Program-made: the position numbers and the translations under genes
Shown here: piece after piece, positions 36 to 5,573 of the stretch
How positions within the stretch are numbered: the first letter of the stretch is position 1
Layout: each line of letters begins with the position of its first letter
Origin: a virus
Taxonomy: Duplodnaviria; Heunggongvirae; Uroviricota; Caudoviricetes
Virus record (IMG/VR): IMGVR_UViG_2531839128_000025
Direction: 5' to 3' (one strand)
Length of the DNA stretch: 5,573 nucleotides
The notes under the pieces: model-generated
Database searches by the model: none
The model's input: only the letters and a program-made list of their open reading frames with translations
Told to the model about the DNA's origin: nothing

Positions 36-617
36 TATCGCGTCCTCAACAATGAATTTTGTGATGCGGTGCCTGGTGCCTCCAGGTGACGTTAACCAGT
101 TAACAATTAACGCCGGATACAGAGAACCCACCCATAAGAACCAATACGGAGGTCAACTAGCCTTTTTAACTGTTCCGCGTGCGCTTAGCCGCATTCACCG
201 CATCACAAAATTCACTTTAAAAAGGGCGGCAGAGCAGTCACGGAGTAAAACTGATACCGCCAAACGTCACCAGAAAATTGATAACAGAGGGCGTTGCAGC
301 GGAGTTGTCACTTAAGTGTATGGTCAACCTGACAACCCGGTGCTTCATCGGGAAGACATGAACTCCCCGCCATACTTACCGCCGCGCCATTTCGCGGAGT
401 GCCACAACCGGAAGCGCACGGTCGACGAAAATTTAACGACAGGCTATCTATGAACCAGCTACCTCGCCGTGCGCTTTCGCGTTATGGTCTGACTTTTCAG
501 GGAAATATCCTTTCAGTAAACTGTCAGTTCCGGATGCTCACCCGTGTCCGGCGCACGCACTCCACCTCACCCGTGGAGAACTCCTTAATTACCAACCTTA
601 GCTTCGTTGGTTAGCTA

Positions 618-836
618 TTAACGCGGGTATGTAATCATTCTGGCAATGCTTAATGCCGCTGCTTTTTCCAGCCTGGTGATATCCTGCTCCAGAGCGGACA
701 GATTTTCAGCCTGCTTAGCCCTGGCTTCATTGGCCCATTTCAGATCCTGCGCTGCATTAATTTTCTGGCGCATCCACTCATAAAGTTCATCATCGGTATA
801 GTCTGGCGCGATGATGACGGGTTCTCGTTTCTGCAT
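618..836 (-). CDS. small early-left-operon phage protein, 72 aa, unknown function (MQKREPVIIAPDYTDDELYEWMRQKINAAQDLKWANEARAKQAENLSALEQDITRLEKAAALSIARMITYPR)
   Basis: Minus-strand ATG at 836 preceded by a near-consensus RBS (minus 5'-CACAAGGAGTCGAC-ATG; AAGGAG with 5-nt spacer). Protein is helix-like and charged, not antisense-looking. It is the C-terminal part of the 271-codon frame 618..1433. Its position left of the repressor matches where small kil-type genes sit in Rac-like prophages (recalled, not verified). Confidence 0.5.
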   Translation of the reverse strand: MQKREPVIIAPDYTDDELYEWMRQKINAAQDLKWANEARAKQAENLSALEQDITRLEKAAALSIARMITYPR

Positions 837-1433
837 GTCGACTCCTTGTGGTTCGTGTTGCCTGCTTTTAACCACATCAGGCGAGGTGGTATCCTGAAAG
901 CCGACCAAAGCTTTACGGATAAATAAGTTATGTTGCAACCACCAATAAATCCGCTTAAAAATATGAAAATTGATTACTGGTATAAAGCACTTACAGTTGT
1001 TGGTGCTGCGTTGTTTGTCTTTAATGGAACATCTTTTTTTGACAGATACCCCGTTGTTCCACTGGCTTTTTTGTCCTCCGGTATTTTCTTCACTGGCCTT
1101 GGAGAGTGGATCAATCACCCTCTCAGAGTGAGATTTATTGGTCCCGGAGCCGTTGCCCGGGGGCATAACCGTTCTCCGTGCACACTCGGCATTATCTTCG
1201 ATATATTGGGTGTCTGCCTGATTGTTACAGGAGTCGTCAAATTCTTCTGAAGAGAATCCACACACAGGGCATACAACCGGAATACGGCAAATGATTTCAC
1301 CCGGCTCGATGTGTGGGTACTCGCCATCAATTTTTTGTTGCTCCCGTATGCCCATGTTGACCTCATTTCCCCTTAACGCCGGGGTAGCGGAACAAAAACC
1401 TGCTGCATAGTTAAAGTTGAACCCTGCCGTCAT
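618..1433 (-). CDS. alternative long gene model: 271-codon open frame (the 72-aa gene would be its C-terminus); possibly two genes or a decayed gene
   Basis: Uninterrupted minus-strand frame from the ATG at 1433 (GAGG 9 nt upstream); a second in-frame ATG at 1355 has a GAGG RBS with 5-nt spacer. The N-terminal 90 aa contain a Cys cluster (CRIPVVCPVCG...DSC...ECARR). The central ~110 aa (about 836-1180) are K/N/S/I-rich and read like the antisense of the T-rich plus-strand membrane ORF. The full-length model is therefore doubtful. Confidence 0.2.
   Translation of the reverse strand: MTAGFNFNYAAGFCSATPALRGNEVNMGIREQQKIDGEYPHIEPGEIICRIPVVCPVCGFSSEEFDDSCNNQADTQYIEDNAECARRTVMPPGNGSGTNKSHSERVIDPLSKASEENTGGQKSQWNNGVSVKKRCSIKDKQRSTNNCKCFIPVINFHIFKRIYWWLQHNLFIRKALVGFQDTTSPDVVKSRQHEPQGVDMQKREPVIIAPDYTDDELYEWMRQKINAAQDLKWANEARAKQAENLSALEQDITRLEKAAALSIARMITYPR
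963..1250 (+). CDS. small hydrophobic (membrane) protein, ~95 aa, 2-3 predicted TM segments; possible superinfection-exclusion-type accessory gene
   Basis: ORF 930..1250 in the supplied track; the ATG at 963 gives MKIDYWYKALTVVGAALFVFNG...VVPLAFLSSGIFFTGLG...LGIIFDILGVCLIVTGVVKFF with clear hydrophobic segments and T-rich third codon positions. No good Shine-Dalgarno before 930 or 963. Opposite orientation to its neighbours, as for sieB in Rac and lambda (recalled, positional only). Overlaps the long minus-strand frame. Confidence 0.35.
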   Translation: MKIDYWYKALTVVGAALFVFNGTSFFDRYPVVPLAFLSSGIFFTGLGEWINHPLRVRFIGPGAVARGHNRSPCTLGIIFDILGVCLIVTGVVKFF

Positions 1434-1537
1434 GTTCTTACGCCTCGGGCTGGCTACTTAACCCCTGACCACTGCCTGGTAACTCGAAGTATTGCCCTGC
1501 ATTCTGTGGAGCGGGGTGAGTTGGTATGAAAAGAAGG

Positions 1538-1576
1538 ATACCCATAGGTATTTAAAAAGTAAATACCCATGGGTAA
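1538..1576. promoter_or_regulatory. left operator-like site pair (OL-like): two palindromes, ATACCCATAGGTAT and ATACCCATGGGTAA, 25 bp apart
   Basis: TACCCATGGGTA at 1564-1575 is a perfect 12-bp palindrome; 1539-1550 TACCCATAGGTA has one mismatch. Lies in the 184-bp gap between the repressor stop (1618) and the leftward ORF start (1433). Same core motif (ACCYRTRGGTA) recurs twice in the repressor/cro intergenic region. Confidence 0.45.
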
Positions 1577-1617: not shown

Positions 1618-2037
1618 CTATGATGCGTTTTGTGCTTTCTTTTTACGGATTTCTTCGTAGATCATATTGTAATACTGTTTTTTCTCTTCAAGAGTTTTTA
1701 ATAAGTTATCCGCTTCACTTTCTGGCAGTTCGTCTAAGAGATCTAAAAAAATACGTTGTCGTGGCGTTAGAACCCTTGTTTCATAACTGGAGGCTGTGTT
1801 CGTTGATGATGAAACGATACCATCCATCCATCCCCGGGGTAACCCAAAGGACTCTTCGATAATCTCCACCATATCATCAGCGATCCGTTTTTTTCCCTTT
1901 TTCCCCTCTGGGTACAACATTCTTGATACATAAGAAGGCTCGCGCCCGATCTTTCTGGCCACGTTAACCGCTTTACCATCGCATTTCTCATCACGAATTT
2001 TGATGAGTTGCTGTCGTCTAAATTCATATTTGTCCAT
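1618..2037 (-). CDS. CI-type phage repressor, N-terminal helix-turn-helix, no S24 peptidase domain (RacR-like immunity repressor)
   Basis: 139-aa ORF; HTH-like segment GKAVNVARKIGREPSYVSRML followed by ...RIADDMVEIIEESFGLPRGWMD, consistent with the phage CI repressor HTH family as I recall it. Divergent from a cro-like gene with operator repeats between them. Too short and lacks an obvious Ser/Lys autocleavage region. No Shine-Dalgarno upstream of the ATG at 2037; a TATTAT -10 (minus strand, plus coordinates 2049..2044) sits 6 nt upstream of the ATG, suggesting a leaderless transcript. Confidence 0.85.
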   Translation of the reverse strand: MDKYEFRRQQLIKIRDEKCDGKAVNVARKIGREPSYVSRMLYPEGKKGKKRIADDMVEIIEESFGLPRGWMDGIVSSSTNTASSYETRVLTPRQRIFLDLLDELPESEADNLLKTLEEKKQYYNMIYEEIRKKKAQNAS

Positions 2038-2137
2038 AGGTAAATAATAGATGCGATTACTGCAAGGTAAACAACCTGTGGGTATTGACTTTTGTTTACC
2101 TGTAGGTATTCTTTGCTGTGTTTACTAAGGAGTAGCT
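2038..2137. promoter_or_regulatory. divergent promoter/operator region (OR-like) between repressor and cro-like gene
   Basis: Direct repeats AACCTGTGGGTATT (2073-2086) and TACCTGTAGGTATT (2097-2110), 24 bp apart. Inverted repeat GGTAAACAA (2066-2074) / TTGTTTACC (2092-2100). Rightward promoter candidate: -35 TTGACT (2085-2090), 16-bp spacer, -10 TATTCT (2107-2112), then RBS AAGGAG (2128-2133) and ATG at 2138. Leftward promoter candidate: -10 TATTAT with -35 TTTACC on the minus strand. Operator repeats overlap both promoters. Confidence 0.5.
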
Positions 2138-2419
2138 ATGGAAGAATTAAGAATATTTCTCAATTCTCTTTCGTCAGATGAACAGCGTATGTTTGCATGC
2201 GAGTGTGGTACCAGCATCGGTTATCTAAGAAAGGCATTGAGTAAAGGTCAAGTGTTAGGGGCATCGTTATGTGTCCTTATTGAGCGAGCCAGTAATGGTG
2301 AAGTTACACGTCAGCAACTAAGGCCTTTTGATTGGATGAATATTTGGCCCGAGCTGGAAGATACCAAAACGTTAACACAACCACTTTCTAGGAGCTTGAT
2401 TCATGAAAATCAAGCATGA
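2138..2419 (+). CDS. Cro-like HTH transcriptional regulator, YdaS family (Cro/CI-type; putative antitoxin-like partner of YdaT)
   Basis: 93-aa ORF with strong RBS (AAGGAG, 5-nt spacer). HTH-like TSIGYLRKALSKGQ and the C..IERA.NGEV....LRP.DW pattern I associate with YdaS-type Cro proteins. First gene of the rightward operon opposite the repressor. Confidence 0.8.
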   Translation: MEELRIFLNSLSSDEQRMFACECGTSIGYLRKALSKGQVLGASLCVLIERASNGEVTRQQLRPFDWMNIWPELEDTKTLTQPLSRSLIHENQA

Positions 2420-2828
2420 ACACATCCGCATGGCGATGAATGCCTGGGCGCATCCGGACGGTGAAAAAGTTCCGGCAGCTGAAATAACCAGGGCTTATTT
2501 TGAACTGGGTATGACGTTCCCAGAACTGTATGACGACAGCCATCCGGAAGCCCTGGCTCGCAATACCCAGAAAATTTACCGCTGGGTAGAGAAAGACACC
2601 CCTGATGCAGTTGAAAAAATTCAGGCGTTGTTACCAGCGATCGAAAAGGCAATGCCACCTTTGCTGGTGGCCAGAATGCGCAGCCACAGTTCAGCTTATT
2701 TTCGGGAGCTGGTGGAGACGCGGGAGCGACTGGTGAGAGACGCTGATGATTTTGTCGCAGTGGCAATCGCCGGTTTCAATCAGATGAACCGTGGTGGCCC
2801 GGCAGGAAATGCTGTGGCAGTACATTGA
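2403..2828 (+). CDS. YdaT-family protein (putative toxic/regulatory protein of the RacR-YdaS-YdaT-type module)
   Basis: 141-aa ORF; N-terminus MKIKHEHI... and C-terminus ...VAVH resemble what I recall for E. coli YdaT (unverified). RBS TAGGAG (2389-2394) 8 nt upstream of ATG. Start overlaps the end of the cro-like gene by 17 nt. Gene order repressor / cro-like / this gene / replication gene matches Rac racR-ydaS-ydaT-ydaU. Confidence 0.75.
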   Translation: MKIKHEHIRMAMNAWAHPDGEKVPAAEITRAYFELGMTFPELYDDSHPEALARNTQKIYRWVEKDTPDAVEKIQALLPAIEKAMPPLLVARMRSHSSAYFRELVETRERLVRDADDFVAVAIAGFNQMNRGGPAGNAVAVH

Positions 2829-2899
2829 CTGACAATAGCCATATCGAATCGCTTCCGGCAACTCGTGAGTAAAAAGATTCGGTATCAGAAGAGGTGAGT

Positions 2900-3970
2900 A
2901 TGGCTAACGCTTGGCTCAGATTATGGCATGACATGCCAAATGACCCTAAGTGGCGAACAATTGCCAGGGTGTCAGGGCAGCCAATTGCAACAGTGATGGC
3001 AGTGTATATCCACCTCCTGGTGAGCGCGTCACGAAATGTCACGCGAGGTCACATTGATGTCACGACAGAAGATTTAGCAAGTGCGCTCGACGTGACAGAA
3101 GAGGTAATTGATTCAATTTTGCAGACGATGCAGGGGCGGGTACTTGATGGTGATTTAATCACTGGATGGGAAAAACGCCAGGTGCTTAAAGAGGACAACG
3201 GCAATATTTCGCAAACCGCAAAATCTCCGGCAGAGCGCAAGAGGGCGCAGCGAGAGAGGGAAAGAAAGCGGGAACAAAATGGCGATTGTCACGGCGCGTC
3301 ACGAAATGTCACGCACATGTCACGACGAGTCACGACAGATAAAGATACAGATAAAGATACAGATCAAGAAGATCAAAACACTATGGTCCATGGCGTAAAA
3401 AACGCCACGAACCAGGCAGGGGATGTTCAGACCGTCAATCCTGGTCAGCCAGCAGGCACGACACCGGAAGCCGATTCAGCGTATGCGCTGAAAGCCGATT
3501 CGGGCGCTGTGCAGCAGGTGATGACCCCAAGGCCGGAGCAATCACACCAACTGCAGCAGCCTGAAGCCGATTCCGCCATTCAGCGGGAAGCCGATCGGGT
3601 AGTCCCGGAAAACACCGGGCTGTCTGTGGGACGAGTGGATTATCCGGATGTATTCGAACAGGTCTGGCGGGAGTACCCGTTGCGTGCCGGAGCAAACCCG
3701 AAGAAATCCGCTTTCAGTGCCTGGAAGGCCAGATTACGCGAGGGGGTGCCACCAGAGGCCATGCTGGATGGCGTGAGGCGTTACGCAAGATACTTGGCGG
3801 CTACCGGGAAAACGGGAACGGAATTTGTTCAGCGAGCGACGACGTTTTTTGGACCGGACCGGAATTTTGAGAACCCCTGGTTGCTCCCGGTAAGCGGCAC
3901 GAACAACCAGCGTTGTGTGAATCATATTTCTGAACCGGATAACGAAATTCCGCCGGGCTTCAGGGGGTAA
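2900..3970 (+). CDS. phage replication initiation protein (replisome-organizer / lambda O-like initiator) carrying its own origin iterons
   Basis: ORF 2894..3970 in the track; the likely start is ATG at 2900 (GAGG at 2891-2894, 5-nt spacer), with GTG at 2894 as alternative. N-terminus ANAWLRLWHDMPNDPKWRTIARVSGQPIATVMAVYIHLL resembles phage replisome-organizer N-domains. C-terminus FEQVWREYPLRAGANPKKSAFSAWKARLREGVPPEAMLDGVRRYARYLAATGKTGTEFVQRATTFFGPDRNFENPW resembles the conserved C-terminal motif of phage DnaD/O-like initiators (recalled). Internal phased repeats plus an acidic DKDTDKDTDQEDQ linker mirror lambda ori-within-O architecture. Confidence 0.85.
   Translation: MANAWLRLWHDMPNDPKWRTIARVSGQPIATVMAVYIHLLVSASRNVTRGHIDVTTEDLASALDVTEEVIDSILQTMQGRVLDGDLITGWEKRQVLKEDNGNISQTAKSPAERKRAQRERERKREQNGDCHGASRNVTHMSRRVTTDKDTDKDTDQEDQNTMVHGVKNATNQAGDVQTVNPGQPAGTTPEADSAYALKADSGAVQQVMTPRPEQSHQLQQPEADSAIQREADRVVPENTGLSVGRVDYPDVFEQVWREYPLRAGANPKKSAFSAWKARLREGVPPEAMLDGVRRYARYLAATGKTGTEFVQRATTFFGPDRNFENPWLLPVSGTNNQRCVNHISEPDNEIPPGFRG
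3024..3064 (+). repeat. iteron-like cluster A: four GTCAC(G/A) hexamers phased at 10-11 bp inside the replication gene N-domain coding region
   Basis: GTCACG at 3028, 3038, 3059 and GTCACA at 3048; inverted copy CGTGAC at 3091-3096. The 21-mer GCGCGTCACGAAATGTCACGC (3024-3044) is repeated exactly at 3294-3314. Confidence 0.5.
3284..3380 (+). repeat. iteron cluster B plus AT-rich tandem repeat: putative replication origin within the initiator gene
   Basis: Five GTCACG hexamers at 3288, 3298, 3308, 3319, 3329 (helical-turn phasing), immediately followed by tandem 12-mers AGATAAAGATAC x2 (3337-3360) and a degenerate AGATCAAGAAGATCAAAAC. The iterons-then-AT-rich layout in the linker between N- and C-domains parallels lambda ori in gene O. 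Confidence 0.55.
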
Positions 3971-4010: not shown

Positions 4011-4436
4011 GTGGCAAAAGTTTTTACACAAGAAGAGCGGGAAAAAATTAAAGGGCAGGTTGTTGAACTCGTACGCCAGAGTGGGCGCGAGACGTTACGA
4101 CAACTGGAAACTAAAACTGGGGCAACAAGATATCTGATGAGTGTTCTGGCCAGAGAGCTGGTTGCCAGTGGCGATGTATACAACTCTGGTTACGGGTTAT
4201 TCCCGTCTGAACAGGCGCGTAAGGACTGGCAAAATGCCCGTATAAAGCTCTCAAGGGCAAAGCTGAAGAAACCATCTGCGGTTGATCCGGACCTTATCTG
4301 GTCATTACCTGACGGAGAAATACGTCGCTACGATAGTTGTCTAAACATAATCTGTCGCGAGTGCCGGAAGAGCGAAGTTATGCAGCGCATTCTGGCATTT
4401 TATCAGGGAAATGTTAGGTATTTTAGACGTTACTAG
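4011..4436 (+). CDS. hypothetical phage protein, 141 aa, N-terminal winged-helix-like segment; GTG start
   Basis: Strong RBS AGGAGG (4001-4006) 4 nt upstream of GTG at 4011. N-terminal VVELVRQSGRETLRQLETKTGATRYLMSVLARELVASGDVY looks like a wHTH. C-terminal half has a small Cys cluster (CLNIICRECRK). Family not identified; sits where a helicase loader would be in Rac. Confidence 0.7.
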   Translation: MAKVFTQEEREKIKGQVVELVRQSGRETLRQLETKTGATRYLMSVLARELVASGDVYNSGYGLFPSEQARKDWQNARIKLSRAKLKKPSAVDPDLIWSLPDGEIRRYDSCLNIICRECRKSEVMQRILAFYQGNVRYFRRY

Positions 4437-4576: not shown

Positions 4577-4663
4577 ATACAAATAGCCAGACTTAGACTG
4601 GCATGCTGTTTATTTTTATATTATGGGTGTGCCACATGGATTTAAAACTTATTGAGATATGAC

Positions 4664-5573
4664 ATGGATACTTTTCATAATATTTTGCTTGAGCACATAG
4701 ACAGCCTTTTAAAAGAGAGACTTGATTTATCTGGTGACGCTGATATCGAAAAAGAAATTAATAACCTAATTCCCAAAATAGCCATTGTCGTTAAAAAATC
4801 TCTTATTGGCTCGGCCAATGCAATGCTTAGAGAACATCGTTCTCTTTGTGATGAATTTGTTGAGAGAAATATTTCAAGATGGGCAGAGGCTTTTGATTTG
4901 CTCGAAACACTTATAGTGATATGCACGGAGTCCGGTGAAGAGTTCAATCGTTCTTATAGACCACAAGCTGCCTCTGAAGAGGATGTGGTTTTTGATTTAG
5001 TCGTTCGGCATCACGCAAGAGCTTGCCACATCGCCAACGAAATTTTGTGTCTCTTAAAGAATGGATTTGCAGATGCTGCCCAAGCGAGATGGCGAGCACT
5101 TCATGAGGTAGCGGCCACAGCTATGTTTATAGCAAAGCATGGAAAAGAGTGTGCTGAGCGCTTTTACTACCATGAAGTGGTTGATTCATATACTGGAATG
5201 TTGGAACACAAAAAGTACGAGCACCGGTTAGAAGCAAAAGGTCCAACTATTGAAGAAATAGCTGAGTGTAAAGTTCAATTTGATCTATTAATAAAAAAAT
5301 ATGGCAAAAAATATGCAGATAATTATGGCTGGGCATCTTATATTTTCCCTAACCATAATAAAGTGGGGTTTGGAGCTATTGAGAAAGATGTTCAGTTAGA
5401 ACACATGCGCCCTTATTATAAGTGGGCGAGTCAGAATGTACACACCGGTTCCAAGGCAATGAGAAATAGGCTTGGTCTCTGTGAAACTGGTGATGATATA
5501 TTATTGGTCGGGCAAAGTGATTCAGGAATGGCTGATCCAGCCCATGCTACTGCTATTAGTTTGATGCAGATTA
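4664..5573 (+). CDS. AT-rich cargo ORF of unknown function, partial (303+ codons, 3' end beyond window); candidate accessory/defence gene with HEPN-like R-x4-H motif
   Basis: ATG at 4664 opens a frame with no stop to the window end (protein starts MDTFHNILLEHIDSLLKERLDLSGDADIEKEINNLIPK...). It is absent from the supplied track only because it runs off the window. Strong A/T bias in codons, unlike the replication genes upstream. Weak SD (GAGA). Contains RWRALH (R-x4-H). No family confidently recognised. Confidence 0.75.
   Translation, partial: MDTFHNILLEHIDSLLKERLDLSGDADIEKEINNLIPKIAIVVKKSLIGSANAMLREHRSLCDEFVERNISRWAEAFDLLETLIVICTESGEEFNRSYRPQAASEEDVVFDLVVRHHARACHIANEILCLLKNGFADAAQARWRALHEVAATAMFIAKHGKECAERFYYHEVVDSYTGMLEHKKYEHRLEAKGPTIEEIAECKVQFDLLIKKYGKKYADNYGWASYIFPNHNKVGFGAIEKDVQLEHMRPYYKWASQNVHTGSKAMRNRLGLCETGDDILLVGQSDSGMADPAHATAISLMQI

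Follow-up and report, generated by a model that had tools for sequence, protein, structure and literature searches.

The three genes at positions 1618-2828 of the IMG/VR virus record IMGVR_UViG_2531839128_000025 (5,573 nucleotides (nt), analysed over its full length and referred to here as the window) are very likely, with a probability of about 0.85, not a set of toxins but a cI/Cro/CII-type switch between lysis and lysogeny, the immunity region of a Qin/Rac-like lambdoid prophage. The window is the early region of such a prophage of Escherichia coli: several E. coli chromosomes match it at 98.9% identity across 91% of its length, and phages Tritos, Evi and others are related to it. The module consists of a repressor gene (1618-2037, minus strand, 139 amino acids) and, divergent from it across 100 bp of intergenic DNA, a cro-like gene (2138-2419, plus strand, 93 amino acids) that overlaps ydaT (2403-2828, plus strand, 141 amino acids) by 17 nt. 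All three open reading frames (ORFs) are real genes, and homologues of each of the three proteins are numerous. An earlier reading of this DNA (the sequence-only reading) had found the same three ORFs at the same coordinates and had likened the module to that of Rac; the coordinates were borne out, the layout parallels Rac racR-ydaS-ydaT-ydaU...ydaW, and the gene order is also that of Qin and phage Tritos.

From sequence comparison, the repressor is a chimera of an S24-family DNA-binding head and a non-cleavable DicA-class tail. The DNA-binding domain (residues 1-73, nt 1819-2037) is followed by a disordered linker (approximately residues 74-88) and a DicA-type helical C-terminal domain (residues 89-139, nt 1621-1773). 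The head showed 70-80% identity to the N-domains of prophage repressors of 221-242 amino acids with PF00717 (Peptidase_S24), found in Salmonella, Edwardsiella, Klebsiella and Pantoea, and 65% identity to cI of phage mEp043 (Aguilavirus mEp043, JQ182734), in which the recognition helix EPSYVSRML is identical and the S24 domain was confirmed (63.9 bits). The head matches no Pfam helix-turn-helix (HTH) family. In the tail, residues 89-134 are homologous to the DicA C-terminus (33% identity, E 1e-7), and the DicA-class motif LxPRQxxLLxLFxxLPxSEQD...EEKK is present at the extreme C-terminus. The AlphaFold2 model of the repressor contains helices at residues 92-103 and 106-138, and the C-terminal 50 residues are confidently folded. 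A full-database search with the tail only returned 42 clusters, in which proteins of about 125-185 amino acids invariably end with this tail; 34 members out of the 42 clusters were scanned, all of which matched the DicA model (34/34), and an HTH_3 head was found in 26 of the 34. Because the tail is joined to many different DNA-binding heads, it appears to be a portable module. A tblastn search of phages with the C-domain found Tritos-type matches only, the query being too short to reach DicA. The repressor as a whole is not a DicA orthologue; the NCBIfam DicA model (NF007257) gave 23.9 bits against a cut-off of 101, with residues 86-136 aligned on profile positions 81-131 only. The modestly new point of this analysis is that a chimeric repressor has its immunity cassette in common with an S24-type phage, mEp043.

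Consistent with the sequence-only reading, which had described the repressor as short and without a LexA/S24-like autocleavage domain, no Pfam match was found for this protein at E<=1, hence neither Peptidase_S24 (PF00717) nor HTH_3, and the structure model agrees. The Ala-Gly and Cys-Gly dipeptides are both absent from its sequence. The RacR-type label given to the repressor in that reading was not upheld: BLASTP found no similarity to RacR (best E-value 2.3), no NCBIfam RacR match was obtained, the N-domain belongs to the mEp043-cI/S24 lineage and the C-domain is DicA-like. Single-sequence and profile searches of the repressor against solved structures gave nothing significant; comparison of folds with the model identified the repressor of the SPC32H Rep-Ant complex (PDB 5d50) as the best structural match.

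Analysis of the window for operators revealed seven matches to TACC-N4-GGTA (at most one mismatch) against 1.17 expected, a number reached in none of 200 shuffles. The predicted right operators are OR3 (2058-2069, TACTGCAAGGTA), OR2 (2073-2084, AACCTGTGGGTA) and OR1 (2097-2108, TACCTGTAGGTA), with centre-to-centre spacings of 15 and 24 bp, and the pattern search placed the left operators OL2 (1539-1550, TACCCATAGGTA) and OL1 (1564-1575, TACCCATGGGTA) 25 bp apart. The promoter scan identified a PR-like promoter (2085-2112, plus strand; -35 TTGACT, 16-nt spacer, -10 TATTCT), which is followed by an AAGGAG ribosome-binding site for the cro-like gene (2128-2133, plus strand), and a PRM-like promoter (2044-2071, minus strand; -35 TTTACC at 2071-2066, 16-nt spacer, -10 TATTAT at 2049-2044). 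OR1 lies between the -35 and -10 of PR; OR2 abuts the PR -35, with its centre at about -41.5 from the predicted PRM start; and OR3 overlaps the -35 and spacer of PRM. A candidate PL (1535-1575, minus strand; -35 TTTACT at 1563-1558, 17-nt spacer, -10 TATCCT at 1540-1535) is bracketed by OL1 and OL2 in the layout seen at PR, and the repeat pair there (I1) is 85% complementary to the PR region. PL leads into the leftward operon ending in dicF and dicB.

Three OR and two OL sites occupy corresponding positions in three further immunity regions, those of mEp043, of an S24-type relative from Salmonella and of a short-type relative from Yersinia; the flanks and the central 4 bp of the operators differ from one element to another. 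In mEp043 the OL pair lies over the annotated PL, and an OL pair is also present in the Salmonella and Yersinia relatives, the spacing in these elements being 25-26 bp. The operator assignment is thus supported by a phylogenetic footprint across these elements. The mRNA of lambda cI is leaderless. In the window the end of the PRM -10 is only 6 nt from the repressor ATG (2037) and a Shine-Dalgarno sequence is absent, and for this reason a leaderless repressor mRNA is predicted; this placement of the -10, 6 nt before the ATG, and the lack of a Shine-Dalgarno sequence are common to all four elements (window, Salmonella, Yersinia and mEp043). A leaderless mRNA was shown experimentally for PaaR2 (PMC8630535). 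OL1 and OL2 together form a 16-bp hairpin (1539-1575, minus strand) followed by a U tract (free energy -23.4 kcal/mol, z -4.7), directly 3' of the repressor stop codon. Folded in this way, the OL sites could also act as an intrinsic terminator and prevent PRM transcripts from entering the PL operon. A sixth exact TACC-N4-GGTA site (TACCGCTGGGTA, 2577-2588) was observed inside ydaT, possibly by chance. It arises from the Tyr59 codon TAC, a position that is Phe (TTC) in 3c4r, 8bt1 and Tritos, and the exact site is absent at this position from two elements with the same immunity cassette (L001 and L006).

The cro-like protein is a divergent YdaS-type Cro by fold and position, although the Pfam threshold was not reached. 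It scored 25.8 bits against Pfam YdaS (PF15943; cut-off 30) and aligned on profile positions 30-62 only, the C-terminal half; 13 of 15 cro-like homologues matched the model at E<=0.01 (best E 2.9e-6). The protein has the YdaS/Cro HTH fold and takes the first place in the PR operon, 5' of ydaT. The sequence-only reading, in which the repressor faces a YdaS-family gene joined to a YdaT-family gene, therefore stands for the arrangement of the genes, their overlap, and the fold and position of the cro-like protein, and falls short at the Pfam cut-off for YdaS. Of the three Pfam assignments it had proposed to check, that of YdaT was confirmed, that of YdaS was below threshold and that of the repressor gave no match. 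The core of the cro-like protein (residues 1-76, HTH) is 72% identical to mEp043 cro, and residues 77-93 form a low-confidence tail that is missing in homologues of 76 amino acids. The last codons of this tail hold the YdaT box described below.

The third protein scored 37.5 bits against Pfam YdaT (PF06254; cut-off 21) and was assigned to phrog_163, 'CII-like transcriptional activator' (5.6e-45). It aligned over its full length with PDB 3c4r (about 98% identity, 5.5e-91) and PDB 8bt1 (about 85% identity, 3e-80), the latter being YdaT of prophage CP-933P, a tetrameric POU-like DNA binder (PMC9986795). The protein shares with the solved structures a POU-like HTH domain and a C-terminal helix for tetramerisation; the core helix residues I103, L110, V111, V114, F117, V118 and A121 (PMC9986795) are L, L, V, A, F, V and A here. 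An exact TTGATT-N6-AATCAA, the OM operator consensus of CP-933P, occurs at 2396-2413 (TTGATTCATGAAAATCAA; the YdaT box). It is the sole match with no mismatch in the window and extends from the end of the cro-like gene over the ydaT start codon. CP-933P YdaT recognises this sequence at the ydaS/ydaT junction (PMC9986795) and activates a PRE-like promoter, and its expression is not toxic (PMC8630535); Rac YdaT, through the near-identical box ATGATTCATGAAAATCAA, switches on a reverse promoter for racR (PMC11879457). Since the CP-933P YdaT with about 85% identity is known and the exact box is present, YdaT of the window is, by analogy, an already characterised kind of CII analogue. A terminator-like hairpin, GCCACC...GGTGGC with a T run (2654-2671, minus strand), is located inside ydaT and recalls the oop RNA ending in lambda cII; the sequence to its right yielded no promoter, and the number of such sites (2 against 1.2 expected) is at chance level.

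Alignment of the window with Tritos revealed a mosaic. Identity of about 98% starts exactly at the YdaT box and continues through ydaT, and the repressor tail is about 80% identical in DNA and 72% in protein; the DNA-binding head, OR and cro are unrelated and have been swapped as a block. The exchangeable immunity cassette therefore consists of the head, the operators and cro, bounded by the repressor linker on one side and the YdaT box on the other. Comparison with mEp043 showed, besides the similar head and cro, three OR sites (spacing 25/15) and two OL sites (25) of the TACC-N4-GGTA type and the same placement of -10 and ATG. In contrast to the repressor of the window, mEp043 cI has 228 amino acids with Peptidase_S24 and is presumably RecA-cleavable, and mEp043 has a lambda-type CII (Phage_CII) and an N antiterminator, not YdaT. 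In Yersinia the same repressor type as in the window is also found beside a lambda-type CII and not YdaT.

The module belongs with the known Qin- and CP-933P-type immunity regions. CP-933P (Sp12, E. coli O157:H7; PaaR2/YdaS/YdaT; PMC8630535, PMC9986795) is like the window in its repressor gene divergent from ydaS-ydaT across about 100 bp, in its YdaT with an identical box at the ydaS/ydaT junction, in a short repressor without S24 and a -10 positioned for a leaderless mRNA, and in having, beyond the repressor, a promoter of the PL type whose operators match. It differs in that PaaR2 is a different protein (starting MQKKE), the operators are GTTTAGTAA-type repeats instead of TACC-N4-GGTA, paaA2-parE2 follows the repressor and is not found in the window, and YdaS is only about 35% identical to the cro-like protein in a structural alignment. 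Qin (DicA/DicC/YdfX, dicBF operon; PMC10448788) resembles the window in having ydfC, dicF and dicB downstream of PL and a repressor, DicA, with a homologous C-domain and no S24; its YdfX is a truncated YdaT homologue, and its bistable SOS-independent switching is documented (PMC10448788). On the other hand, the DicA N-domain is a classical HTH_3, the operators of Qin differ from those of the window, DicC has no detectable similarity to the cro-like protein (E 0.054), and the Rem antirepressor of Qin was not found in elements related to the window. Rac has the order racR-ydaS-ydaT-replication-DUF977 in common with the window, a YdaT with 34% identity over the full length and nearly the same box, and a YdaS with a common 28-residue motif, whereas RacR has no detectable similarity to the repressor. 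In the Salmonella S24-type relative (L007-L009, 3733-4298) a ParE-family toxin gene and a partner of 95 amino acids adjoin the repressor gene, reminiscent of the position of paaA2-parE2 beside paaR2 in CP-933P; it seems that toxin-antitoxin pairs have settled at this place more than once.

A working scheme for the switch can be proposed. The 139-amino-acid repressor would be the cI analogue, probably translated from a leaderless PRM transcript, and as a dimer it would bind TACC-N4-GGTA, so that OR1 and OR2 occlude PR, and OL1 and OL2 occlude PL. OR2 is placed where an activator of PRM would sit, and OR3 would serve negative autoregulation. Repression of PR would silence the cro-like gene, ydaT and the replication genes, and repression of PL would silence the leftward operon ending in dicF, dicB and ydfD. 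The Cro analogue is expected on the same operators in the opposite order, counteracting the repressor. A YdaT tetramer at its box would turn on a leftward PRE-like promoter and supply more repressor during establishment; this boost, shown for the CP-933P and Rac proteins, is predicted here from the near-identical protein and the exact box.

Since the repressor has no S24 domain, RecA-stimulated self-cleavage is very unlikely, in line with the sequence-only reading, which had held RecA-mediated cleavage to be unlikely. Induction is probably SOS-independent, as the domain content and the related systems suggest. A possible trigger would be stochastic Cro-driven flipping, as for DicA/DicC; alternatively, a small antirepressor of the Rem or Gifsy kind could be encoded elsewhere. 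For DicA, relief comes from Rem as well as from spontaneous switching that depends on DicC, and the signal for Rem has not been shown to be SOS (PMC10448788). The short Gifsy repressors are not cleaved and are inactivated by antirepressors, and DicA was grouped with GfoR/GftR by Lemire 2011 (PMC3121763). A search for strict LexA boxes (CTGT-N8-ACAG) found none in the window, where one mismatch was allowed, nor in the full Tritos genome and 17 kb of a cassette-bearing prophage (L001). Virions of Tritos, whose backbone and repressor tail class are those of the window, are made spontaneously and ciprofloxacin gives no increase (PMC9928086).

Several points weigh against the switch as proposed. 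The operators and the activation of PRM are predictions from sequence and analogy, and the leaderless repressor mRNA is a prediction of the same kind. The PL hexamers were read by eye, fall below the threshold of the promoter scan and are weak, with an 8/12 match to the consensus. No PRE-like leftward promoter near the YdaT box passed the promoter scan, and hexamers picked by eye were unconvincing. By analogy with Rac YdaT, which is toxic through host rcsA (PMC11879457), YdaT of the window may have an effect on the host. Because the Tritos repressor shares just the C-domain (72%), the non-inducibility of Tritos transfers only indirectly to the window. No antirepressor candidate was identified. 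In K-12 Qin, Rem is encoded at a position upstream of ydfU; at this position in related prophages no Rem homologue was found, and an unrelated phrog_1212 protein of 92 amino acids with no Pfam match is present there. This protein is conserved just upstream of the DUF968 gene ydfU in three elements (L013 28133-28411, L001 13731-14009, L005 38197-38475).

The sequence-only reading had taken the module for a repressor-toxin addiction or growth-arrest switch, in which YdaS and/or YdaT are toxins checked by an essential repressor. Its model is Rac, where racR is essential and its silencing de-represses ydaS-ydaT and leads to growth arrest (PMC5700373, PMC5700377), where YdaS and YdaT are toxic upon ectopic expression (PMC5700373, PMC5700377, PMC11879457), and where YdaT causes filamentation and death through rcsA (PMC11879457); the word 'toxin' stands in the Pfam names of both families, and YdaT of the window shares its box with Rac YdaT. 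However, the closest characterised homologue, the CP-933P YdaT, is a non-toxic CII analogue (PMC8630535, PMC9986795), which makes the 'toxin' label outdated for this branch. The repressor has no detectable similarity to RacR, the addiction found in CP-933P is due to paaA2-parE2, and profile scans gave no toxin-antitoxin family match for the module. Jobling argued that YdaS and YdaT are regulators (PMC5917428), as did the authors of the CP-933P study (PMC8630535), and by analogy the pair would be regulatory here and not a toxin pair. Natural alleles of the repressor point weakly the same way. An A7 homopolymer (1888-1894, minus strand as coding strand), in the Gly-Lys-Lys-Gly-Lys-Lys codons of the DNA-binding domain, is A8 in at least three assemblies (L015-L017, 6001-6411), giving a frameshift in that domain, and annotation still shows intact cro-like, ydaT, replication and dicB genes there. 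These alleles are either real loss or phase-type variation of the repressor, or else a homopolymer sequencing error, and slippage or immunity supplied in trans may also play a part; a real A8 allele is favoured because the three assemblies have lineage single-nucleotide polymorphisms in common. We regard an addiction module as unlikely, and harm from derepression would come more plausibly from the PL operon (dicF, dicB, ydfD) and phage replication than from 'toxins'.

A somewhat less improbable alternative, though still a doubtful one, is an SOS-inducible switch of the Gifsy type, in which the non-cleavable repressor is inactivated by a LexA-controlled antirepressor encoded elsewhere in the prophage or in another prophage. 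The repressors of Gifsy-1/-2/-3 and SPC32H Rep (PMC3121763; PDB 5d50) are likewise short, non-cleavable and lambdoid; the repressor of the window is like GfoR/GftR and DicA in its length (139 amino acids) and its lack of S24 and Ala-Gly, its C-domain is homologous to that of DicA, the target of Rem, and its best structural match comes from a repressor-antirepressor complex. Against this stand the missing LexA boxes and the missing Rem homologue reported above, the unchanged yield of Tritos under ciprofloxacin (PMC9928086) and a Rem signal not shown to be SOS (PMC10448788); in contrast to Gifsy, a LexA-controlled antirepressor module was not found in the window or related phages, although an antirepressor acting in trans from another prophage could have escaped these searches. 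Decay of an S24-type cI, leaving the short repressor as a truncated pseudogene without regulated function in a cryptic prophage, is very improbable. Its N-domain does occur in full-length S24 repressors, its RefSeq product name is 'hypothetical protein', and no phage isolate of the phage collection carries the exact protein. Yet its last 50 residues do not derive from a frameshifted S24 domain but form a folded helical DicA-homologous domain known from 42 clusters of short repressors, and the gene is at least 99% conserved in 704 genomes; on these grounds the pseudogene was rejected. Short homologues in Yersinia, Serratia and Salmonella immunity regions also keep intact operators, and expression of the related repressor of Tritos, a plaque-forming phage, is 24-fold over background in a lysogen (PMC9928086).

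The immunity switch is widespread. The cassette of 821 bp (repressor to ydaT start) was found in 824 of 5426 complete E. coli genomes (about 15%), nearly always as a single copy per genome, with 704 copies at least 99% identical. The exact repressor is absent from the sequenced phage isolates of the phage collection, where its top matches are mEp043 (head only) and Tritos (tail only). Database labels are misleading for this common module, namely 'toxin YdaT family protein' for YdaT and 'hypothetical protein' for the repressor in RefSeq, and 'Bacterial toxin YdaS' in Pfam; a complete cI/Cro/CII-type switch with defined operators would provide a corrected reading for hundreds of E. coli genomes. 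The repressor would govern dicF and dicB, cell-division inhibitors for which the literature describes effects on host metabolism and phage resistance, and because of this control the timing and mode of its inactivation would affect host physiology.

The natural pair of repressors with the same head and either an S24 or a DicA-type tail bears on how a C-terminal module sets inducibility without altering immunity. It is conceivable, and put forward only tentatively, that one immunity specificity (mEp043-type head, TACC-N4-GGTA and cro) exists in two induction versions, SOS-inducible with the S24 tail and SOS-blind with the DicA-type tail. If true, SOS-blind prophages, resident in roughly 15% of E. 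coli genomes, would protect their hosts from homoimmune S24-type phages with an immunity that is SOS-proof, and could keep a co-resident homoimmune prophage silent upon DNA damage. In that case the DicA-type tail would act as an 'induction-mode' module that moves between repressors through recombination at the linker, and might also be where Rem-like antirepressors dock.

The genes of the window are arranged in the order dicB start, dicF, ydfC, variable stretch, repressor, cro-like, ydaT, replisome organiser and DUF977/Ren-like gene. The DicF small RNA (dicF, 224-275, minus strand) was identified by Rfam with 76.7 bits, the variable stretch occupies 822-1617, and the replisome organiser and the DUF977/Ren-like gene are located at 2894-3970 and 4011-4436, respectively. 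The STnc100 small RNA family gave a match below threshold between dicF and the start of dicB (58-212, minus strand; 35.3 bits against 47). With 800-1640, which includes the variable stretch, as query, the maximum coverage by any complete E. coli genome was 44%. In this part of the window, an ORF of 106 amino acids (930-1250, plus strand) with clear membrane-spanning segments lies antisense to an ORF of 271 amino acids (618-1433, minus strand), inside the leftward operon and at the place occupied by sieB in Rac. Its product shares 88.7% identity with a phage HannyBb hypothetical protein and about 36% with proteins of mEp390 and Burkholderia phage Bcep176, and because of these similarities the ORF is probably a real gene. 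The 271-amino-acid ORF may be partly spurious; it strings together PHROG families 37620, 35040 and the ydfC-like 1744. At the right edge of the window, a stop-free frame of at least 309 codons (4646-5573, plus strand; first Met at about 4664) runs past the end of the DNA; its counterpart in E. coli F1005 (L001) is a DUF5677 gene with the annotation of a frameshifted pseudogene. The DNA around this frame has a GC content of 0.34-0.44, and such AT-richness points to a slot for morons or defence genes beyond the replication genes.

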